A stretch of DNA of 64,000 nt from Rickettsiales bacterium (GCA_965228885.1 OZ245841.1:21168-85167); one strand, 5' to 3'; counted from the stretch's first letter, positions 7,942 through 21,454 are shown. A program made the numbers and translations. The notes: generated from the sequence alone by a model not told the origin.

Positions 7942-9201
7942 TTAGAAATTTTCTTTAAACCAAGTGATAAACTTTCTAACCAAAGAAATTTTGGATAAAC
8001 CTTTAGAAGATCTAGCAGCGCTTTTATCTGCAAAATACTTTAACACACCTATTGCTGCAGAATAAGTAGCATTAATTGATTCAGCACTAAGCCCTGAAAC
8101 GGTTATTGGTTTGCCTAATCTGACCTTACTTCTAAAAATCTTAGAAGCTTCATGGCTTATACCAGATAACAAGCTCCCTCCCCCAGTCAAAACGATATTA
8201 CGCTGAGTTTCACAAAAATTTTTCTTCTTATCAAAAGTAGCTTTAAGAAGAGTTAGAATTTCTTCTATTCTAGCATTAATTACATCATTTAATTCAGCAT
8301 TTGAAATGTTTCTTTCTTCATGATCAAAAGGATCATCCAAGTTATCAATCTTGCAATGAATCATCTTCTGAGAATCAGCATATCCAATACTTGCTGCTCC
8401 ATTAATGGTTTTAATTCTTTCAGCTGTAGATAAATCAAGCATAAAGCTTTTAGCTATATCTTCGGTTATCGCTCCACTTCCTATCGGAACAAAACCACAA
8501 TAAACTATATTTTTTTGCAGGAAAAAAGCATAGGAAGTGATCCCTGCCCCAAAATCAATTATAGTGGCACCTAATTCTTTATCACTATTATTTAAAGTGG
8601 CTAGACCTGCAGCATATGGAGCAAAAACACAATCTTCCACATCTAACTGACAACTGGCCAAGCAGTTGATGATATTTTCAAGCATAATAGATGGCACAGT
8701 AACAAAGTGAATCTTAGCTGATATTTTATTTCCAAGTAATCCACTGGGATCATAAATTCCATCATTCCCATCAATAATATACTCTAAAGGAAAATAGTGA
8801 ATAACTTCACGTCCCTGCTTCTCAAGATCCCTAACTCCTTGAGTTATAAGAGCATTAATATCACGATTATATACTTTATGCTTTTTAAGCTCTAAAGAAG
8901 GACAAATGTAATGGGAGCGTATTTTATTTCCATTTAATGCAAGAATTATCTTATCAACTGTTATTCCTGCTATTTTCTCTGCTTGATCAACAGCTGCTAT
9001 TATTGATGTTTTGGCTAATTCACTATTGGTAATAACCCCATTTCTGAAGCCATTAGCACTATGACATCCACTACCAATGATATTAATTGCACCAGACTTA
9101 ATATTAGCAATCAAACAAACCACTTTACTAGATCCAACGTCCAGAATGCTAACTATTTCTCCATCATAAGAAGATGTGGATATGATTTTTTTGAAATTCA
9201 T
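7942..9201 (-). CDS. ftsA: Cell division protein FtsA
   Basis: LDVGSSKVVCLIA, IDFGAGIT, LTGGGSLLSGI actin-fold motifs. Confidence 0.96.
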   Translation of the reverse strand: MNFKKIISTSSYDGEIVSILDVGSSKVVCLIANIKSGAINIIGSGCHSANGFRNGVITNSELAKTSIIAAVDQAEKIAGITVDKIILALNGNKIRSHYICPSLELKKHKVYNRDINALITQGVRDLEKQGREVIHYFPLEYIIDGNDGIYDPSGLLGNKISAKIHFVTVPSIMLENIINCLASCQLDVEDCVFAPYAAGLATLNNSDKELGATIIDFGAGITSYAFFLQKNIVYCGFVPIGSGAITEDIAKSFMLDLSTAERIKTINGAASIGYADSQKMIHCKIDNLDDPFDHEERNISNAELNDVINARIEEILTLLKATFDKKKNFCETQRNIVLTGGGSLLSGISHEASKIFRSKVRLGKPITVSGLSAESINATYSAAIGVLKYFADKSAARSSKGLSKISLVRKFITWFKENF

Positions 9202-9992
9202 TTTTTCTCTACATATATTTTATTGGCAACTCTTAAATCCAATGATTTAATATCAGGCAAAAATAACTCATTATTCTTATAAAGTTTTATCACCTTTTTC
9301 CAGGCCTTTTCCATATTTTCCCCTGGCAGCTTCACTTCTAATTTATTATCAAACCTAACATTCCAACGACGCTCACTAACTCTGGTAACCGAACTAATTC
9401 TTTTAAATAACTCAGAATCTTCTTTTAATGTTTCCATCAAAGAATTAACATAAATTTCCGCTCCATCACCTATAATTATAGGTAAAGACATATGAGAAGC
9501 CAATTCTTTTTCATTAATAATAACCCCTTCATTATCTATAATATATAATTTACGATTTTTTTGCCCCAAAGCTAGAGGGACTCTCTCTTTTATATATATA
9601 TGAATATCGTTTGGAAGCTCTCTTTCTATAACGGCATGTTTAACCCACGGCAAAGATTCTAGATTTTCTTTCAACTCTTCAAGTGAAACAGAAAAAATAG
9701 GCATCCGTTTTTTTAAATTTAATTTTCGACCAATCTGATCATTATTAGTATATTTCTGACCATCAACACTTACATGCTCTAAAACAAACCCAGCTCTAGC
9801 TGTGATTTGATACCAATCTTTCACTATGCTATCTATACTCAAATAAATTAGAATAAACAAAGACACAACCGCCAAAATTAACAATGCTTTTGCAAAAAGC
9901 ATAATCTTCTTCACCAAAGAACGTGACTTTCGCGCACGTGCCCGAGCAACCTTAGGCTGTGTTTTCGGCTTTCTTTTTGTTTTAGCAACCAA
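9198..9992 (-). CDS. ftsQ: Cell division protein FtsQ
   Basis: Basic N-terminus, single TM, POTRA (LESLPWVKHAVIERELP), C-terminal LDLR; overlaps the ftsA start. Confidence 0.92.
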   Translation of the reverse strand: MVAKTKRKPKTQPKVARARARKSRSLVKKIMLFAKALLILAVVSLFILIYLSIDSIVKDWYQITARAGFVLEHVSVDGQKYTNNDQIGRKLNLKKRMPIFSVSLEELKENLESLPWVKHAVIERELPNDIHIYIKERVPLALGQKNRKLYIIDNEGVIINEKELASHMSLPIIIGDGAEIYVNSLMETLKEDSELFKRISSVTRVSERRWNVRFDNKLEVKLPGENMEKAWKKVIKLYKNNELFLPDIKSLDLRVANKIYVEKK

Positions 9993-10246
9993 TGTTTAAG
10001 CACCAAAATTGTTAATAACTTACTTATAGAATAAAGAAAAACCTTAAAATATCAATGGATATCTAATTAGATTTATTCTATAAAATAATCAAAAGATATA
10101 GAAATAAAGAATCTTGCGAATCAACATCCCTTTAGTCTTAACATCTTATATAAACGTTATTTAAGAAAAATATTTACTTATATTAGTAAATTATATAAAA
10201 TATGTATTAACTAAGGTTAATAAAATAACACGAAACTAGTTCTACT

Positions 10247-11143
10247 ATGAGAAAATATATTCGATCGATGCCAACGAACTCAAAAATACATTCTGTAATC
10301 TCACTAGGCAGTAATTACTTTAAAAATCAGTATAGCACAGCCGAAGAAAGAATGGAAAAAACCTTTGTAAATTCATTAGAAATACCTGAACCTTCGTTAT
10401 ATGGGGTATTCCAAAGCGCAGATCATTATCTAAAGACTCTAAATTTGCTTATGCTATCTACTATAGAACCTCAACACAAGGAAGAACTTTTATTAAGAAA
10501 GATCATACCTGAATTGCAACAACATAGAAATTTACTGGATATTGGAACTGGAAGAGGAGATTTTACACAAATTATAGGAAAGTATTTTAACAATATAACT
10601 GCAGTAGATAACAGTGAAGAGGCCCTAAATAACCTACCAAGCTTTATTGAATCATCCCCCGTACATAAAGTAAAAGGATCTATCTTAGATTGCAACTTAA
10701 ATATCTATAACATTAAGTATGATATGATTCTAATATCACACACCATTTATTATATACCTCAAGAAGAAAGACTTCCTTTAATAGAAGACATGACTCAACT
10801 ACTTAGCAAAACAGGAGTTCTGGTCTTGGTATTTAATGATGAGGGAGACAGAGCGTCCCTAGGAAAACATTATGGAGCTATAGACTCGGGATTTAGCTCA
10901 ATTCATAATACTCTTCCTCAGTTACATAATAATTTTCAATTATATAGAATAGATGAATTTCTAGACGGAGGAGATTTAAATTCTATGATGCATATTGCAG
11001 GAATTTGCCTTAATGATTATGAAGTAAATGCCACAAAAGAGAGTCTATCTAGCTATCTAACAGAAAACTACTGTCCTAACAATATTTGCCAATTAAGCAT
11101 GACCCAAAACATTATAGTGATAGGACAAGATGAGAGTTATTAA
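10247..11143 (+). CDS. Class I SAM-dependent methyltransferase, small-molecule type
   Basis: Motif I LLDIGTGRG, post-I AVDNS, YDMILISHTIYY; overlaps the downstream kinase by 14 nt. Confidence 0.88.
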   Translation: MRKYIRSMPTNSKIHSVISLGSNYFKNQYSTAEERMEKTFVNSLEIPEPSLYGVFQSADHYLKTLNLLMLSTIEPQHKEELLLRKIIPELQQHRNLLDIGTGRGDFTQIIGKYFNNITAVDNSEEALNNLPSFIESSPVHKVKGSILDCNLNIYNIKYDMILISHTIYYIPQEERLPLIEDMTQLLSKTGVLVLVFNDEGDRASLGKHYGAIDSGFSSIHNTLPQLHNNFQLYRIDEFLDGGDLNSMMHIAGICLNDYEVNATKESLSSYLTENYCPNNICQLSMTQNIIVIGQDESY

Positions 11144-12866
11144 TAATATAAAACATAGTTTATGGTCAAACATGACTACTAACACTAGAGAGTCTGAACC
11201 ATACTTCACAATATTGGGATATTTCTTAGGAATCTCTTATCTAATTTTTTATATTTTTAATAAGGAAGTATCATCCCCAGAAATATATGAAAATGTATAT
11301 CTTAGAGTCACCATTACCATACTTGGATGGATCTTAGTATTTTACAAATATTGGCCCAAAATCTTAAAAACCATCTGTCCTTTATATTTCTATATAACTA
11401 TATTTATTAGTTTTCCCTTCTTTTTTTCTTTTATGCTTCTGCACAACCAAAACTCTACCATGTGGCATGTAAATGGATTAGTGGGCCTAGTATTTCTTGC
11501 AATTTTTGTGGATTGGATTTCTTTTTTACTATTATCCATTGCAGGGGCAACACTATCTGTAATATTATCCTCGGATAACATCACTTATAACTCTACCTTA
11601 TTAATTGCACTTAGCTCGTATGTAGCTCCTCTATTCTATCTATTAATCTTTTCTAAAAAGAAACAAACTCTTATAGAAGAAAGAAGTAAATATATTACTA
11701 AAATAAAAAAACTTAATGAAGACTTGGAACAAAAAGTACAACAACGCACGAAAGAACTAGAAAAAGCTTTAGCAGTTAAAACGGATTTTCTTAATAATAT
11801 GAGTCATGAAATTAGAACTCCAGTCCATGGGTTTACAGTTCTTTCCGAAGGATTAACAAAATCCTGGGATATATTAAGCGACGAAAAAAAATATAAATAT
11901 ACAAAAGATATTTCCACTAATGCAAAGCGCCTAGAGAACTTAATCAGTAGTATTTTAGACTTATCCAAATTTACTGTCGATAAAATGGTCTTAAATTTCA
12001 AACAAGTGGATTTTAACAAAATAATTGAAGATATTATAGAAGAATGCAAGGGATTATATTTATCTAAAAAGCATATTAATATTGAATATATATCAAATGG
12101 TGAATGCATGATCACCTCCGATCATGAAAGACTTGGCCAGGTATTACGTAATTTATTTTTTAACGCCATAAAATTCACCCCAGATAATGGACATATAAAA
12201 GCTAGCTTTACAGTTAAAAATAATGAATGCCTTCACTTCACCATTAGCGATTCCGGTATAGGAATTCCAGAGCAAGAATTAGATTCTATATTTGAACCAT
12301 TTACTCAAAGCAGCTTTACCAAAACTTCAGCTGGAGGCACGGGGCTTGGGCTTGGAATTTGTCAAAATATTATTAAAGCGCATTCCGGACTCATTTGGGC
12401 AAATAACAACCCTAAAGGAGGTGCCAGCTTTCACTTTACCATCCCAACAAACCAAGGATCATCTACTCACTCTTGCAGCTCACATCCCCCCCCTTCCAAA
12501 ACCATTCTAATGATTGATGACGAAGAAATATGTAGAACAAGCATGGAAATCTTACTTCTAGAAACAGAATATTCTTTAATCACAACTAATGGGGGTGATG
12601 CAGGTATGAAATATCTAAAACAACACTCTGATTCAATAGACATAGTATTATTAGATTTGATGATGGTGGATATGAATGGTCTAGAATTTTTCGAACAAAT
12701 GAAAGAAGACCCAAGACTTACTGAAATCCCAGTTATTTTACAAAGCGGAACTTCTAACCAAGATTTGATAAATAAAGCATATAAAGCAGGAATTTCTAGC
12801 TTCTTGAGAAAACCTTACCAAAAGAAAGATATCCTATCAGCAATACAAAAATCTTTGAGAATATAA
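11130..12866 (+). CDS. Hybrid sensor histidine kinase with a six-TM CqsS/LqsS-like input domain, HisKA, HATPase and REC
   Basis: Six hydrophobic segments including ENVYLR..WP and FPFFFSFMLLHN..STMW; H-box NNMSHEIRTP; NAIKFT, DSGIGI, GGTGLGLGI; REC MIDDEE...DLMM...KPY. Confidence 0.9.
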   Translation: MRVINNIKHSLWSNMTTNTRESEPYFTILGYFLGISYLIFYIFNKEVSSPEIYENVYLRVTITILGWILVFYKYWPKILKTICPLYFYITIFISFPFFFSFMLLHNQNSTMWHVNGLVGLVFLAIFVDWISFLLLSIAGATLSVILSSDNITYNSTLLIALSSYVAPLFYLLIFSKKKQTLIEERSKYITKIKKLNEDLEQKVQQRTKELEKALAVKTDFLNNMSHEIRTPVHGFTVLSEGLTKSWDILSDEKKYKYTKDISTNAKRLENLISSILDLSKFTVDKMVLNFKQVDFNKIIEDIIEECKGLYLSKKHINIEYISNGECMITSDHERLGQVLRNLFFNAIKFTPDNGHIKASFTVKNNECLHFTISDSGIGIPEQELDSIFEPFTQSSFTKTSAGGTGLGLGICQNIIKAHSGLIWANNNPKGGASFHFTIPTNQGSSTHSCSSHPPPSKTILMIDDEEICRTSMEILLLETEYSLITTNGGDAGMKYLKQHSDSIDIVLLDLMMVDMNGLEFFEQMKEDPRLTEIPVILQSGTSNQDLINKAYKAGISSFLRKPYQKKDILSAIQKSLRI

Positions 12867-12881
12867 TAGATAATTTTTAGA

Positions 12882-12956
12882 TGGAGCGGGTGAAGGGAGT
12901 CGAACCCTCGACATTTACCTTGGCAAGGTAACGCTCTACCACTGAGCTACACCCGC
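12882..12956 (-). tRNA. tRNA-Gly (GCC)
   Basis: Reverse complement gcgggtgtagctcagtggtagagcg-ttacc-ttGCCaa-ggtaa...ggttcgactcc...cacccgctcca. Confidence 0.97.
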
Positions 12957-13075
12957 TTATTTTTCCTCTACTATAAGGTAGAGTAGAAAAATATACCTAA
13001 GCAAAAAAATAATGCAAGTATAAACTTCAGATTTATTATAGTTTTTTAAAACCTGAAATTTATACTTTTTACAAA

Positions 13076-16000
13076 CTATATAAAAATCTGATCAATATTA
13101 AGCTTCTCCTCCCCAAAAAACATTACTGGAGATTCACTAAATGGTAATTTAGGCATCATATATTCATCTTGAGATATTGGAACATAGTACGAAGCATTCT
13201 GCAGTTTCATATCAAAATGATAAAAATCACCTAACTGAACATGTGGTTTGTTATCATCTAGTCTTTTTTGAACTTCTTTGATAGCGTCTTCATATTCTTC
13301 TTTTTCAGCATCTACTACCTTTACCTCAGGAAGTGAAGATAATGATATACTTATCTCTTGTAACTCTCCCTGAGAACTATCTTCCTCAGTAGAAACTTTA
13401 TGCTTCTTAACACCTTTATATCCTTTTTTGTTCTTTTTAGGAGGTGATTTAGCAACCGCTCCACCACCTCTACCATCATCACCACCATGATTATAAGCAC
13501 TTGTTGATGTCTCATTAGCAGAACCATAAAAACCATTAGGGTTGTATGGGGGATAAACAGGCATAGTAAATTGATTCCCCCATTGATCAATACAAACACC
13601 ATTTGGGTCCATATAAAAATGTTTTACACTACCATCATCAGGATTGAACATACAAGCATTACATACTACTGGAACAACAGGAGGTAATTGTTGCTGATCT
13701 TTATAATAAAAATGAATACCTTCTGGACCTGGAACGGAAATATATTCACCACTAATATTACTCACTGAACCACAGGAAGCTGCACTGCCATCTGTATGAC
13801 CACTGGAAATCGAAGATTCCATATCCTGATTCTTTCCATCATCTTGTATTTCAAACTCTTTTTTGTAATTTAGGCCCCCTGAATCTTGCTCATCTTTCAT
13901 TCCTTCTGAAGACGCTGTATTAACTGGTGAATTACTTACCAACTCTTTTGTACTTTCTTCTCCTGATTTATTTTTTGTCTTTTCTAATAACATTGCCTTA
14001 TAAGACTTTACCCCCACCTTACTAGGCTTATCTAAACTAGTTTCCTGCTCAACAGACTTCAAAGGTGAAGCTTTTTTAGAAGCTGTTTTAACCTTTGAAT
14101 TTCCCTTAATATCTTTTGAATTCTCTCTTTTCTGTGGTGACTTTATAGAGCCACCTCCTCCTGCTCCACCTGGCTTATCAGAACCACTTACAGCCTCAAC
14201 CTCTCTCCCTCCTTTTTTTGTTTTTTTATAAGAAATTTGTTGCCAATCATCTTCTACAATTTCTGGCCCAATTACGACCTGATTATTCAAGCTATAATCA
14301 CCTTCTTCATCTTGTTGCTCAGTTAGAGGCTGATTCTTTAATCCAGAATCATCGGAAGTTGTGTCTTCGGCTTTAATTTTTCTATCAAGATTAGTTTTCT
14401 TCTTTTTGATTTTATTCTTTTTCTTCTTACCTTTAGAAATACCGTCTTGAGATAAAACCTCATTAGGAGAAGCCACCTTAACTTCTAAATTAACAGAATA
14501 TGCTTTAGAAAGGCTAGCATCTTCTCCAAAAAGCAAAGAACCCTCTAAGCCAGTAATGTCCTTTATCGCTTTATTTGCTTTTTTCTTATTATCCTTACTA
14601 AATAAATTATTTTTTATAATCCACTCTAACTTGCGACGCTCACCTAGTAGAAAGTCTAGCTTTTTCTGATCTACGTTATTATCATCTAACTTTTCTTTTA
14701 TCCCTTGAAACACCTCTTGAAGAAATTTTTCTTTTTCTTCGTCGCTTAATTTTCCAAAAGAAAAAATAAAATCTTTTTCTATGACATCACTCTTATTTAA
14801 AATTTTCTGCGGACTTAGGGTATAAATTTTCGTATATTTAGAAAATAATTTCTTTGCCTTTTCCTTAAACTCTTGTCCTTCACACTTACTTAAAATATTT
14901 TCAAATAAATCAATACTTAAAAGACCTTTTTTGTATAATTTTGTTAAAATAATATCTTCTTGATCTTCTTCAGCAACTTCAATAATACTATATATTGTTC
15001 CCTCTCGAACTTCATTAATAGTGGCGTCTTTAACTGTCGTCACTTTAGAATTCCAATAACCTACAATATATTCAGCAATAAATGGTACAATAACGGCTTT
15101 TAATTCAGTATACTCATCACCTTTAGATTTTTTTAAAAGATTTTTATATAAATGTATTCCAGCCACTATAATATTCTTATTAGTGAAAATTTCTCTTAAA
15201 AGAGCCTCTCTTGTTTCATGCCCTGACCTTAAAATAATGAACCTTACTATTTCCACCTTCTCATGCTCGGTATAATGATTCCATGAAACAGAATTAAGAA
15301 ATTTTAGACAAGTATCGTGATCTCCCCTAATAAGAGCAGAAAACAAAATAGAAACAAATTTTTCCATATTATAAAAGAACACAGTCTCTGCTGACCCTGT
15401 ACGCAGATCCTTTTCTATTATAGAAAGACCATTATTAACAATAAACTCAACTATCTCTGCTCTATTAAACTTCACAGCCATAATAAGAACAGATTCTATG
15501 CATGTATTTATATACTTCTCTAAAGCAGACCTATTACCACTTAACGATCTAATTTTCATCAGCATAAGAGTAGTCACACGTGATTGCTCTCCCCTTATAA
15601 CATTAAGAAGCAAGTCTAGCTGCTCAAAGGGTATAATATCTTCACTAATATTAGATTTTACCCCTTGCCACTCTCCTTCCGATATATCTCCGGTCAACTC
15701 ACGCAATTCTGCTGGAGATAAATAGTCGCTAGCTTTACTCAACACAAGTGCTATAGGGCTTATTATTTTCAATGCAATGATATTCTTCAATAAAGCGCTA
15801 AATATTATAGGTGCATAATCTGCATAATTATCTGTTCTGCCAATACTTGCGCTTAACCCACCTTCAATAGTACTATTTGCTGCCTGCAAGAGAACCAAAG
15901 GAATATAATTATCAATTAGATAATTAATAATTTTTATTTCTTCTTTTAAACTACTTCCCTCTTCATTTTGAAAACCACTATCTGCAAGCAATTGCTGTAA

Positions 16001-16474
16001 TAAACTTGTCTTATTATCCTTAGCTTTTTTCATAATTTCTATTATCTTATCTTCAGATAATAAATTATCAATGAACCGTGAGTAATGCACTTTATCTAGG
16101 GCTATCTTTGTTAACTGATTAGACTTATTAAGTATTATTTGATTAATATCAATTATCAACTGCATCAGTTTAGTGTGCGTTTCCTTGGAGAATCCAATTC
16201 TTTCTAATAATTTTTCCCTCTCAATAGTTCCATCTGAAGTTGTAATTATTCTATATTGAAATGGCTCAGCCTCAAATGGTGGCCTTTGCATACCTAAACG
16301 CTGCCTAACATGCTCAAAAGGCACGGGCCCTGCCATCCCAGGAATATAATGGTCTATGGGAACATTACTGAACTGCATTCCTCGCCCCCTCATATTATTA
16401 TTTAAAAAATTCAATATATCTTGATCTGATTCAGTTGATTTTTCTTCTTCTGGCTTTTTTCCTTGCTCTTCCAT
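13076..16474 (-). CDS. Large hypothetical protein (1132 aa), candidate secreted effector
   Basis: Helical N-terminal half with one ankyrin-like segment (SVLIMAVKFNRAEIVEFIVNNG); low-complexity Lys/Ser-rich C-terminal half with polybasic clusters. Confidence 0.8.
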   Translation of the reverse strand: MEEQGKKPEEEKSTESDQDILNFLNNNMRGRGMQFSNVPIDHYIPGMAGPVPFEHVRQRLGMQRPPFEAEPFQYRIITTSDGTIEREKLLERIGFSKETHTKLMQLIIDINQIILNKSNQLTKIALDKVHYSRFIDNLLSEDKIIEIMKKAKDNKTSLLQQLLADSGFQNEEGSSLKEEIKIINYLIDNYIPLVLLQAANSTIEGGLSASIGRTDNYADYAPIIFSALLKNIIALKIISPIALVLSKASDYLSPAELRELTGDISEGEWQGVKSNISEDIIPFEQLDLLLNVIRGEQSRVTTLMLMKIRSLSGNRSALEKYINTCIESVLIMAVKFNRAEIVEFIVNNGLSIIEKDLRTGSAETVFFYNMEKFVSILFSALIRGDHDTCLKFLNSVSWNHYTEHEKVEIVRFIILRSGHETREALLREIFTNKNIIVAGIHLYKNLLKKSKGDEYTELKAVIVPFIAEYIVGYWNSKVTTVKDATINEVREGTIYSIIEVAEEDQEDIILTKLYKKGLLSIDLFENILSKCEGQEFKEKAKKLFSKYTKIYTLSPQKILNKSDVIEKDFIFSFGKLSDEEKEKFLQEVFQGIKEKLDDNNVDQKKLDFLLGERRKLEWIIKNNLFSKDNKKKANKAIKDITGLEGSLLFGEDASLSKAYSVNLEVKVASPNEVLSQDGISKGKKKKNKIKKKKTNLDRKIKAEDTTSDDSGLKNQPLTEQQDEEGDYSLNNQVVIGPEIVEDDWQQISYKKTKKGGREVEAVSGSDKPGGAGGGGSIKSPQKRENSKDIKGNSKVKTASKKASPLKSVEQETSLDKPSKVGVKSYKAMLLEKTKNKSGEESTKELVSNSPVNTASSEGMKDEQDSGGLNYKKEFEIQDDGKNQDMESSISSGHTDGSAASCGSVSNISGEYISVPGPEGIHFYYKDQQQLPPVVPVVCNACMFNPDDGSVKHFYMDPNGVCIDQWGNQFTMPVYPPYNPNGFYGSANETSTSAYNHGGDDGRGGGAVAKSPPKKNKKGYKGVKKHKVSTEEDSSQGELQEISISLSSLPEVKVVDAEKEEYEDAIKEVQKRLDDNKPHVQLGDFYHFDMKLQNASYYVPISQDEYMMPKLPFSESPVMFFGEEKLNIDQIFI

Positions 16475-19224: not shown

Positions 19225-19399
19225 GATCAGATTTTCAACCTACGCGAGAATAAAGCAATATTTTTATCAATTATTTCAATTTGCACGATAATATCTATTT
19301 ACAACTCCTTCAAAATCTCCTACTAATATTAATAACCAAGATTTATTCAACTATTACGAAAGTAATATTTGCTTGATAACCAAGTAAACAGGGGCGGTT

Positions 19400-21454
19400 A
19401 TGAAAGAAAACAATAAACACACTTACTCTCTTCTAGGTAGATTTATTAGTTTAATATTTCTTATATTAATTAGCATATCAGCATATATCACTTGGAAGAT
19501 TGAAAACAAGTATAAGAAAGAAGTAGAGAATAATTTAGCTAACATTGCATATAACATAAAACAAAATATTATTACTAATTCTCCAGATAAATTACCTTCA
19601 AGAATTTTAGCAAATGAACTTGATCAAATAATTCACACTAACCAATATAATCAGGAAATTATTACATATTATGCAGTGTTCGACAAGCGTAACAATTTAG
19701 TTATCACACATTCTCCTCAACTTGACATTAACAATCAAGAAAAAGTAACTAAAAACCTCTCTCAACTTATCTCAAATAAAAAAGAACAAATATTACATGT
19801 AACAAAGAGCGCAAGTTATGTACTCTTTAAATTGGAAAACTCACCTTTTATTCTTCTTCTTGGAACCAATCCTATAACAATAAATTATAAAGATTATTTT
19901 TATAACCTCTTAGATTATAAGCTTGAATTATTATTCTTATTAACAACCATTTTAAGTTTAATTTATTTCTTTTATAAATCTATTTTAGAACCATTTCTAG
20001 CTTTATCTCAAGCAGCACTAGATATTTCAAATGGCAACATAGATAGCGCAATTCCTAAGACTAACAGCAAAGAAGGTACTATGGTTGGTAACGCTCTTGA
20101 AAAGATAAAAAACTCCCTAAAAACTGAGAAGGAACTTGTTCAAGAAATTAGTAAGACAAGAAACTCTCTGTCTCTAGTAAATTTAAAACTTGAAAATAAT
20201 GTTGCCAATAAAACAACAGAGTTGAAAAAAGCTTTAGAAGAGAAAACTTTATTCATTAATAACTTAAGTCATGAAGTTAAAACACCTTTACAGAGCATTT
20301 CACATATCTTAGAGAACTTAGTATCTAACTGGCCTGAATTAAATGAAGAAGAAAAGTTTAACTTCTCTACTCAAGCCGCACATAGCTCGCAGCATTTATT
20401 ATCTTTAGTAGGAAACTTATTAGAAATAGCAAAATTTTCTGATGGAAAAATAATCCTAGATCTAAAAAACACTAATTTAATTGAAGCAATTAAAGAAGTG
20501 GTAGAAGAATGTAAAATGCTATATATGAATAACAAAAAGATTAAAATTATTGTTTCTAATAAAGACCCTGTCTATACAAATATAGATAGAAATCGTATCA
20601 AACAAGTCATACGTAATTTATTACTCAATGCAATTAAATTCAGTGGAAATGACGCCTATATCTCAATTGCTGTGTCTCCAACAAAAATATTAGGTCAAAA
20701 TAGTTTTATGTCAGACGCTTTACAAATCTCTATTCATGACCAAGGAATCGGTATTCCAGAAGATGAATTATCTAATATTTTTTCTCCTTTTATCCAAGGA
20801 GCTAATACCAAAAACAAATCAATAGGAACTGGATTAGGACTAACAATTTGTCACGAAATAATCTCCGCTCATTATGGAAAAATATGGGCTGAAAACAACA
20901 AAGATGGAGGAGCAACTTTTAATATTAGCATTCCAGTAACACAACCTATTGAATTAACAAACTCTATCTCAGATTCAATAACGCTTCATAATAACGGCTA
21001 TAATATATTAATGATTGATGATGAAGAAATTTGTTTAAATAGTATGGAAATGATCTTATATGGCACTCAATATAACTTAGTTAAAGTGAAATCAGCTCAA
21101 TTTGCTTTAGAATATTTAAAAGAAAATTATAAGTCTATATCCGTAATCTTTATTGATTTAATGATGCCTGATATTTATGGTCTTAATCTACTCTCTTTAA
21201 TTAAAGAAGACCCCCATTTATCTTTAATTCCCATAATTCTTCAAACAAGCAGTAGTGATGAAAATGAAATACTAAAAGCTTTTGAAAAAGGCGTTTTTAG
21301 CTTTATAACAAAACCATACAAAAAAAATAAACTACTGGAAGAAATAAAAAGAGCTATTCAATTTAAAGAATTGGGAACAGGTGAACAGCCCCCCTCGCCT
21401 TTATTACCATCGATGAACAATCAAAATAAAACCTTTACTTCTACTAATTTATAA
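19400..21454 (+). CDS. Hybrid sensor histidine kinase (two TM, periplasmic domain, HAMP, HisKA, HATPase, REC)
   Basis: Two TM segments; HAMP-like ILEPFLALSQAALDISNGN...KEG; H-box NNLSHEVKTP; NAIKFS, DQGIGI, GTGLGLTI; REC MIDDEE..DLMMP..KPY. Confidence 0.92.
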   Translation: MKENNKHTYSLLGRFISLIFLILISISAYITWKIENKYKKEVENNLANIAYNIKQNIITNSPDKLPSRILANELDQIIHTNQYNQEIITYYAVFDKRNNLVITHSPQLDINNQEKVTKNLSQLISNKKEQILHVTKSASYVLFKLENSPFILLLGTNPITINYKDYFYNLLDYKLELLFLLTTILSLIYFFYKSILEPFLALSQAALDISNGNIDSAIPKTNSKEGTMVGNALEKIKNSLKTEKELVQEISKTRNSLSLVNLKLENNVANKTTELKKALEEKTLFINNLSHEVKTPLQSISHILENLVSNWPELNEEEKFNFSTQAAHSSQHLLSLVGNLLEIAKFSDGKIILDLKNTNLIEAIKEVVEECKMLYMNNKKIKIIVSNKDPVYTNIDRNRIKQVIRNLLLNAIKFSGNDAYISIAVSPTKILGQNSFMSDALQISIHDQGIGIPEDELSNIFSPFIQGANTKNKSIGTGLGLTICHEIISAHYGKIWAENNKDGGATFNISIPVTQPIELTNSISDSITLHNNGYNILMIDDEEICLNSMEMILYGTQYNLVKVKSAQFALEYLKENYKSISVIFIDLMMPDIYGLNLLSLIKEDPHLSLIPIILQTSSSDENEILKAFEKGVFSFITKPYKKNKLLEEIKRAIQFKELGTGEQPPSPLLPSMNNQNKTFTSTNL

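Follow-up and report, generated by a model that had tools for sequence, protein, structure and literature searches.

A methyltransferase gene coupled to the gene of a six-helix CqsS/LqsS-like hybrid kinase: a candidate new signalling pair in a Rickettsiales bacterium

We analysed a 64,000-nucleotide stretch of DNA (the window; G000:C1:21168-85167) from the complete, single-contig 1.55-Mb genome of a Rickettsiales bacterium, in which the gene of a class-I S-adenosylmethionine (SAM)-dependent methyltransferase overlaps the gene of a hybrid histidine kinase with six predicted transmembrane (TM) helices. The reading towards which we lean is that the pair consists of a signal synthase, or an enzyme that finishes a signal, and its cognate receptor, translationally coupled, in a PhcB-PhcS-like design built on a receptor of the CqsS family; this function is one that we infer. 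To our knowledge, quorum sensing of the CqsS/LqsS type is known only with alpha-hydroxyketones made by CqsA or LqsA, in Vibrio, Legionella and some environmental proteobacteria. The new aspect is that a bona fide member of the receptor family, with a remodelled ligand site, is co-inherited with a probable small-molecule methyltransferase in host-associated Alphaproteobacteria.

The association of the two genes was followed through the relatives. Open reading frames (ORFs) were called in all sensor loci, the neighbouring genes were clustered and their classes were checked with Pfam. Homologues of the methyltransferase (phmmer E values from 6e-162 to 3e-9) were found directly 5' of the sensor kinase in six loci, L011, L010, L013, L082, L014 and, from Candidatus Odyssella, L026, and the same arrangement was seen in L093. 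The junctions in the relatives' pairs are overlaps of 14, 11, 11, 26 and 23 nucleotides or a gap of 1 nucleotide. One homologue (P0159, 44% identical to the methyltransferase) shares an 11-nucleotide overlap with a 578-residue hybrid kinase carrying the same sensor, and these two genes lie between an AbiEii gene and sspB; another pair stands between infB and an hda-like gene. The flanking genes differ among the loci and, of the genes around the kinase, only that of the methyltransferase is conserved; every strong methyltransferase homologue with readable surroundings lies directly 5' of this receptor clade, in six independent surroundings. It is clear that the adjacency of methyltransferase and kinase is far beyond chance.

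We also surveyed 301 genomes sampled from the order to which the window belongs, taking E<1e-50 as a strong match to the methyltransferase. Such a match was present in seven genomes; in six of them it lies directly beside the best sensor match, in the same orientation, and the seventh assembly is fragmented. The original prediction had described a SAM methyltransferase gene overlapping a six-TM hybrid kinase gene by 14 nucleotides and had looked to relatives for the same adjacency. Both ORFs are present as it described them, and the neighbourhood survey bears out the synteny, with the pair moving as a unit through differing genomic surroundings. In a genome from another family of the order (G169; locus L110, G169:C1:1251000-1256500), both the methyltransferase and the adjacent sensor kinase are pseudogenes: the former contains one TAG codon, the latter is split into pieces of 134 and 513 amino acids with several stop codons, and the two are decaying together. 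The fact that the methyltransferase gives only generic domain matches would fit a chance neighbour, that is, an unrelated metabolic or housekeeping enzyme with no functional link to the kinase. This explanation is largely refuted by the recurrence of strong homologues in front of the sensor clade in unrelated surroundings with no other shared neighbour; in addition, the start/stop overlap recurs in most pairs, pseudogenisation in G169 was joint and no housekeeping equivalog matched, and we regard it as very improbable.

A tree of 84 sensor domains placed the CqsA-linked receptors in one clade of 48 rows, with a support of 95 in the Shimodaira-Hasegawa-like approximate likelihood ratio test (SH-aLRT). 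All seven methyltransferase-linked sensors fell into one clade of nine rows (SH-aLRT 95), together with one FkbM-linked sensor and one that has an unclassified upstream fragment. The partner label changes 15 times on this tree compared with 37.4 times in shuffles, and none of 200 shuffles was as low. The phylogeny of the receptors tracks the class of the partner enzyme.

The membrane domain of the kinase had been likened to the ligand-binding domain of CqsS and LqsS on account of two short strings, and both YENVYLR...YWP and FPFFFSFMLLHNQNSTMW were found in the protein. Residues 1-195 matched no Pfam or NCBIfam model, no NCBIfam model for CqsS came up when five members of the sensor family were scanned, and a word-seeded search with the sensor part returned only five relatives. 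A profile made from these five and the paralogue in the same genome (A1) found 1335 family representatives among 1.84 billion proteins, and for 841 of these the E value was 1e-10 or lower. Among the 150 best matches listed, most have either LqsS-like lengths of 420-450 amino acids or the lengths of hybrid kinases (560-760 amino acids); the database names of the members of the sensor cluster ('hybrid sensor histidine kinase', 'hypothetical protein') gave no further clue. When named genomes were scanned with A1, 79 loci were obtained, which include a 693-residue hybrid kinase of Vibrio hepatarius (E 1.4e-19) and the lqs cluster of Nitrococcus mobilis Nb-231 (E 1.2e-28), whose lqsA/lqsS genes are cited in the literature (PMC3376566). 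Other loci came from Paraburkholderia, Alcanivorax, Coxiellaceae, a Tatlockia (Legionellaceae) metagenome-assembled genome (MAG), Candidatus Odyssella and MAGs labelled Rickettsiales or Rickettsiaceae.

The methyltransferase-linked sensors (alignment A4) were compared by hhalign with ten CqsA-linked sensors, Vibrio included (A3), and aligned over 186 of about 190 columns with a probability of 99.95% (E 8.1e-38). This profile-profile comparison shows a genuine CqsS/LqsS-family domain and not to an unrelated sensor family, in agreement with the original prediction. A search of the PDB with the sensor profile, in a set without the 2026 CqsS cryo-EM (cryogenic electron microscopy) chains, gave no match. 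The hydropathy plot shows hydrophobic segments at residues 24-44, 55-72, 81-106, 109-149 (of double length) and 155-175, which corresponds to six TM helices with short loops; a minimal-loop six-TM bundle directly ahead of the kinase is the architecture of the CqsS/LqsS receptors (PMC4821796).

The structure of V. harveyi CqsS determined by cryo-EM (November 2026) allows the pocket to be compared residue by residue. CAI-1 is hydrogen-bonded by W33, R47 and S103 (S107 in V. cholerae), S103 binding its C3 hydroxyl, and is packed against F26, Y29, L83, F86 and F87 and the TM6 residues F158, F162 and F166; the W33F and F158A variants no longer sense CAI-1, and the pocket opens toward the outer leaflet (PMC13729885). 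In V. cholerae CqsS the W-x-x-S motif is formed by W104 and S107, and the role of S107 has been described (PMC3376566). We read the corresponding positions on the 84-row sensor alignment (Table 1).

Table 1. Ligand-pocket positions in CqsA-linked and methyltransferase-linked receptors (numbering of V. harveyi CqsS)
Site	CqsA-linked receptors	Methyltransferase-linked receptors	Window kinase
W33	W 44/44	N 5/7, W 2/7	N44
S103	S 41/44	N 6/7, K 1/7	N115
F158	F 44/44	A 5/7, S 2/7	A166
R47, F86, F87, W100	kept 43-44/44	kept 7/7	R59, F98, F99, W112

The scaffold in the last row of Table 1 is also kept in every row linked to an iron enzyme. It had been noticed earlier that W-x-x-S of CqsS reads W-x-x-N in the window kinase (W112, N115), and this distinction holds for the groups, with W-x-x-S in 41 of 44 CqsA-linked and W-x-x-N in 6 of 7 methyltransferase-linked receptors; the change is accompanied by two more altered ligand-contact residues, N44 and A166. 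From the alignment, the head-group site appears to be remodelled inside a conserved hydrophobic pocket. Since the counterparts of the head-group and gate residues W33, S103 and F158 are replaced, sensing of hydroxyketones is unlikely, and the remodelled site in a conserved hydrophobic pocket suggests a different, still lipophilic ligand. We infer that this ligand is methylated and made by the methyltransferase. Membership in the CqsS/LqsS family would also suit an orphan alpha-hydroxyketone receptor, similar to LqsT, that eavesdrops on CAI-1/LAI-1-type signals of other bacteria, and both orphan LqsT-type receptors and Legionella species lacking lqsA are known (PMC8023197). However, the two residues essential for CAI-1 (now N44 and A166) and the one that bonds the C3 hydroxyl (now N115), all invariant or nearly so in CqsA-linked receptors, have been replaced, and we consider eavesdropping the least probable of the explanations.

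Pfam matched the methyltransferase only with the generic Methyltransf_25/23/12/11 models (E 2e-8 to 2e-7). The SAM-binding core is of the Rossmann type, with motif I (GxGxG; LLDIGTGRG, residue 96) and an acidic loop (AVDNS, residue 119); D98, G100, G102, G104 and D121 are invariant across the alignment of the methyltransferase family (A2). The NCBIfam equivalogs RsmA, Erm, PrmC, PrmA, CmoA, UbiG/UbiE, BioC, TehB and Pcm all scored far under their cut-offs, the best being TehB with 34 bits against 303. An AlphaFold2 model of the enzyme has two domains (predicted local distance difference test, pLDDT, 85; predicted template modelling score, pTM, 0.83). Its best PDB matches by Foldseek were to human histamine N-methyltransferase (1jqd_A, 2aou_B and 1jqe_A) over about 290 columns and both domains, with a template modelling score of 0.61-0.65, E values of 9e-11 to 3e-10, a probability of 1.00 and an identity of 16%. 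They were followed by HvrF, trans-aconitate methyltransferase (Tam), juvenile-hormone acid methyltransferase (JHAMT), BioC and natural-product N-/S-methyltransferases; rRNA, tRNA and DNA methylases were not among the top matches. At the level of sequence, the search gave no match of the methyltransferase to histamine N-methyltransferase. The equivalog scores and the nearest folds, which are small-molecule enzymes, speak against a known macromolecule methylase, which would have refuted the original prediction. Judging from the model, the methyltransferase is probably a small-molecule class-I SAM enzyme of a histamine-N-methyltransferase-like fold class, a likeness of fold and not orthology. Since it has no hydrophobic N-terminus, the protein should be cytoplasmic. 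Its family is very rare: four relatives turned up among 5.8 billion proteins.

If the pair is a signal synthase with its receptor, the cytoplasmic methyltransferase would make, or complete by methylation, a small molecule that partitions into the membrane. The receptor would retain the conserved arginine and the hydrophobic scaffold for the tail of the ligand (R59, F98, F99, W112), with a rebuilt head-group site (N44, N115, A166), so that alpha-hydroxyketones would not be recognised. Depending on whether ligand is bound, the hybrid transmitter would act as a kinase or as a phosphatase (His226 to Asp509). The phosphoryl group would then be passed to a separate phosphotransferase, for which the genome offers only two candidates, a ChpT-like protein and the Hpt domain of CheA. 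Several points weigh against this reading. Beside the pair, no dedicated pathway to a lipophilic precursor is apparent, and no partner regulator was identified for the kinase. Possible targets of the enzyme include a compound that is imported or of host origin and the kinase itself, which it might also simply bind, as CqsA does CqsS (PMC13729885). The alignment under its structural model holds only 7 sequences, and a histamine-N-methyltransferase-like fold at 16% identity is compatible with N-, O- or S-methylation. The module may also be decaying in some strains, since a variant of the kinase without the receiver domain exists (P0001, see below).

The most serious competitor is that the kinase senses an exogenous compound of the host or of neighbours, which the methyltransferase converts, inactivates or tunes, for example by N-methylating a host amine or lipid amine in the course of adaptation or quenching, the two forming a sensing-plus-processing unit. 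Histamine N-methyltransferase, the nearest fold, inactivates a biogenic amine of host type, the organism is of an intracellular or symbiotic kind and is found in coral metagenomes, and a precursor-building enzyme is absent beside the pair. Moreover, in the order a solute symporter often forms one protein with the sensor or is encoded ahead of it, which suggests that compounds that are taken up are sensed. On the other hand, the tracking of enzyme class by receptor clades and the joint loss of enzyme and sensor in G169 form a synthase-receptor pattern, although a processing enzyme is compatible with it as well, and the enzyme is predicted to be cytoplasmic, whereas the CqsS pocket faces the outer leaflet (PMC13729885). 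We consider such a unit unlikely, although it deserves attention.

It is improbable, in our view, that the methyltransferase regulates the kinase directly, by CheR-like methylation or by binding its cytoplasmic domain, and has no small-molecule product. Points in its favour are the translational coupling, which promotes the formation of stoichiometric complexes, the precedent of CqsA, which binds CqsS and inhibits it (PMC13729885), and weak sequence matches to the protein-histidine N-methyltransferase METTL9 (E 0.007-0.016). However, the enzyme co-varies with the clade of the membrane sensor and not with the transmitter; the paralogous kinase has the same transmitter type (53-58% identity) with another sensor and another enzyme. 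Enzymes of at least five unrelated classes are found at this position, a diversity for which protein methylation would not readily account, and the top fold matches are small-molecule enzymes.

Should the enzyme make the ligand of the receptor, as we favour, the pair would represent a new signal chemistry and a density- or niche-sensing circuit in intracellular bacteria with reduced genomes, which are usually thought poor in cell-cell signalling. Reporters based on CqsS or on adenylate cyclase, to which the sensor domain can be fused, are already established (PMC4821796), and the pocket residues can be read against the cryo-EM structure (PMC13729885).

The same genome contains a second cassette of this kind (G000:C1:822622-825091, equal to L002 1483..3892, minus strand), in which a 230-residue Haem_oxygenas_2 enzyme gene overlaps by 20 nucleotides the gene of a paralogous 578-residue hybrid kinase. 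Its CqsS-type sensor belongs to a different clade from that of the window. The two paralogous kinases are 55% identical in the transmitter and 28% in the sensor; for the methyltransferase-linked orthologues from other genera the identities are 52-58% and 47-49%, respectively. One transmitter type is thus combined with sensors of differing clades, each with its own enzyme, which would fit an exchange of 'enzyme plus sensor' modules.

Components of the classical systems were sought in the whole genome. There is no CqsA: a hidden Markov model (HMM) of 44 CqsA-like neighbours matched a single alpha-oxoamine synthase (400 amino acids, G000:C1:955214-956413, 165 bits), which we read from its motifs as 5-aminolevulinate synthase. 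It was rejected as a synthase for this receptor, being a lone gene, similar to 5-aminolevulinate synthase and far from any kinase. An LqsR HMM gave only weak matches to receiver domains, so no LqsR was recognised in the genome, and neither LuxU nor a free Hpt was found, PF01627 matching only inside CheA. A ChpT-like phosphotransferase (PF10090, 207 amino acids, 566545-566892) adjoins cheA. In this region (G000:C1:563938-566892, minus strand) an 859-residue CheA (Hpt...HATPase-CheW-receiver) is preceded by the ChpT-like protein, and several receiver-domain matches lie near cheA at about 554-568 kb; for a host-associated genome of 1.55 Mb, it looks like a chemotaxis-like cluster.

Partners other than the methyltransferase were seen widely. 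In the classical loci a convergent Aminotran_1_2 (CqsA/LqsA-like) gene was present in 44 and an LqsR-like regulator directly 3' in 43. A Haem_oxygenas_2 (PF14518) iron enzyme lies directly 5' and co-oriented in 18 loci (Coxiellaceae, Legionellales, Tatlockia, Finniella and others), and an FkbM methyltransferase and a radical SAM enzyme were each the partner in one locus. A wider look at 48 sensor loci of the order gave further haem-oxygenase-like partners, and an EgtD-type methyltransferase (PF10017) 5' of and co-oriented with the sensor in five loci (L120, L115, L131, L147 and L149; gaps of -16 to +4 nucleotides), one of which, L120 (G188), is from the genus of the window. A hotdog/LCM methyltransferase (PF04072) precedes a CqsS-type sensor kinase in L143, and in five loci (L103-L107) the gene 5' of the sensor encodes an unclassified protein of about 390 amino acids with weak AdoHcyase_NAD/HcgC matches and the motif ACQHILPS.H.M.RSM. 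Proteins of about 900 amino acids have a sodium:solute symporter domain (PF00474, residues ~40-420) fused ahead of the six-TM sensor domain; they comprise L118, L130 and about 50 similar matches (ORFs of ~860-960 amino acids) in families f27, f29, f23 and f3 of the order. In other loci a separate gene for a 486-residue symporter stands just 5' of the sensor kinase. Three further upstream proteins, of 284 (L017), 158 (L012) and 278 amino acids (L109), were tried as distant members of the methyltransferase family and rejected (hhalign probability <1%). We also noticed a cassette of haem-oxygenase-like enzyme and sensor on a contig labelled MAG: Janthinobacterium lividum (L044), whose proteins look endosymbiont-like and AT-rich; this bin label is probably wrong.

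Altogether, a CqsS-type sensor was found in 45 of the 301 genomes of the order (29 of 160 genera), in up to 10 copies per genome, the symporter-fusion class predominating in the genomes with such high copy numbers. The original prediction had called a circuit of this kind unknown in Rickettsiales. This stands for the literature searched, in which we found no paper linking the CqsS/LqsS family with Rickettsiales and no account of a methyltransferase as the partner of a CqsS/LqsS-type receptor or of this pair; it does not stand for the genomes, since with 45 of 301 carrying them CqsS-type sensors are not rare in the order. A broader reading takes the six-helix CqsS/LqsS receptor to be a general platform that can be fitted to many private lipophilic signals. 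One enzyme gene and the matching sensor domain would form a mobile cassette of ~1.5-2.7 kb that has diversified into many chemistries and has expanded especially in host-associated Rickettsiales-type bacteria, and the window pair would be a new autoinducer class, based on a methylated small molecule made by an enzyme of the histamine-N-methyltransferase fold. The partner classes on which it draws are CqsA-type PLP (pyridoxal phosphate), histamine-N-methyltransferase-like, EgtD-like, LCM/hotdog, FkbM, haem-oxygenase-like di-iron, ~390-residue unclassified and radical SAM enzymes. In these obligately host-associated bacteria the sensors would mediate within-host population sensing or the sensing of host lipids. 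We offer this broader reading tentatively, as a real possibility of which we are not yet persuaded. As the receptor clade predicts the adjacent enzyme class, it can guide the discovery of several further signal classes.

The coordinates of the pair and of its immediate surroundings are given in Table 2. AGGA, similar to a Shine-Dalgarno sequence, is present at 11122-11125 within the last codons of the methyltransferase gene, 4 nucleotides 5' of the kinase ATG (11130). No terminator was found between the two genes in the ORF map, the sequence or the consensus scan, the last being at shuffle level, and the genes are probably co-transcribed. The promoter scan gave one sigma-70-like match (10173-10201) 5' of the methyltransferase gene; sites were no commoner than in shuffles, so this match is a weak indication of a promoter. 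The terminator scan, with 3 sites against 1.4 expected, was at shuffle level and uninformative. A divergent ftsQ-ftsA-rmuC block lies 5' of the pair. On the 3' side, the kinase gene faces a convergent orphan gene for 1132 amino acids (13076-16474, minus strand) with only a faint ankyrin match, and a counterpart of 1147 amino acids occupies the equivalent position in a relative that is 81% identical (L011).

Table 2. The methyltransferase-kinase pair and flanking features (window positions)
Feature	Position	Strand	Basis
ftsQ, divergent from the methyltransferase gene	9198..9992	-	ORF map
Intergenic region between ftsQ and the methyltransferase gene, probable promoter	9993..10246	+	ORF map
Class-I SAM-dependent methyltransferase gene, 298 amino acids	10247..11143	+	ORF map, Pfam, model
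Translational-coupling junction (14-nucleotide overlap, 11130-11143)	11122..11143	+	sequence read
Hybrid histidine kinase gene, 578 amino acids	11130..12866	+	ORF map, Pfam
Predicted six-TM CqsS/LqsS-family intramembrane ligand-binding domain, residues 1-190	11130..11699	+	hhalign, profile search, hydropathy, residue table
HisKA dimerisation/phospho-acceptor domain, residues 217-280; H-box SHEIRTP, His226	11778..11969	+	PF00512, E 5.6e-14
HATPase_c catalytic domain, residues 331-441; N box N345, G2 box GTGLGL at 403	12120..12452	+	PF02518, E 5.6e-28
C-terminal receiver domain (Response_reg), residues 459-573; acidic pair D463/D464, phospho-acceptor D509, K561	12504..12848	+	PF00072, E 6.1e-21
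Weak terminator-like hairpin, 33 nucleotides past the kinase stop, ahead of the convergent 1132-residue gene	12899..12912	+	consensus scan

All the catalytic residues and motifs of the kinase listed in Table 2 are intact. In another sample, a protein 99% identical over the sensor part (P0001) ends at residue 459 (...SSHTPPPKPF) and has no receiver domain; its end resembles a frameshift in a run of proline codons (about 12480-12510) into the frame of a small ORF at 12292..12510. In a genome of the same genus (L109) the paralogous kinase is likewise in two pieces, of 395 and 125 amino acids. A third hybrid kinase is encoded in the window (19388-21451, plus strand), with a transmitter and receiver 42% identical to those of the pair's kinase and an N-terminal part that gave no match to the CqsS-type sensor profile. 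All three hybrid kinases may pass their signal into a single phosphorelay; none of them has an Hpt or regulator gene next to it. Three sequencing runs labelled coral metagenome contain sequence nearly identical to positions 10000-13000 (0.30-0.66 of the words shared), pointing to a habitat in association with cnidarians.

Compared with the known systems, the kinase is closest to the receptors of CqsA/CqsS and LqsA/LqsS/LqsT/LqsR: the sensor is homologous over its whole length, R47, F86, F87 and W100 are kept and the kinase follows directly after TM6. Like the window kinase, Vibrio CqsS is a hybrid kinase with a receiver, and in both cases the receptor gene is linked to that of a dedicated enzyme. 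The differences concern the partner, which is a PLP-dependent synthase in the CqsA/LqsA systems and a SAM methyltransferase here, and the CAI-1 contacts W33, S103 and F158, which are replaced in the window kinase. The transmitter is of the TorS/ArcB/BarA type, whereas the LqsS-length relatives that we scanned (P0004 and P0042) have a LuxN-like one. In the classical clusters surveyed, the synthase gene is usually convergent and two genes 3', in contrast to the window enzyme, which is encoded 5' and is translationally coupled; the LuxU and LqsR partners of CqsS and LqsS are both missing from the genome of the window. The other cassettes with CqsS-type sensors have the same layout as the pair, with the enzyme gene immediately 5', co-oriented and often overlapping the kinase gene, although their enzyme families are unrelated to that of the window, which has a receptor clade of its own. 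As for the enzyme, human histamine N-methyltransferase is its best structural match over the full length, a likeness that concerns the fold class only.

The pair can also be compared with the phcBSRQ operon of Ralstonia and Cupriavidus, in which the gene of the methyltransferase PhcB is directly followed by that of the membrane sensor kinase PhcS and synthase and receptor co-evolve (PMC7694676). The Phc and Lqs systems are treated in the literature as having different genes (PMC10653808). When 121 genomes of Burkholderiaceae, the family of Paraburkholderia bryophila, were scanned with the A3 profile, only lqsA-lqsS(-lqsR) loci were found, and no kinase was seen in the neighbourhoods of LqsR/PhcX homologues in these genomes. 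Downstream in Phc there is a gene of the PhcR/PhcQ type, where the window has the convergent orphan. The product of PhcB, methyl 3-hydroxymyristate or -palmitate, is the signal that PhcS detects, and the likeness to the window pair is one of architecture only, in logic and gene order; carboxyl O-methyltransferases that act on lipophilic acids (JHAMT, BioC and Tam) are likewise among the Foldseek matches of the window enzyme.

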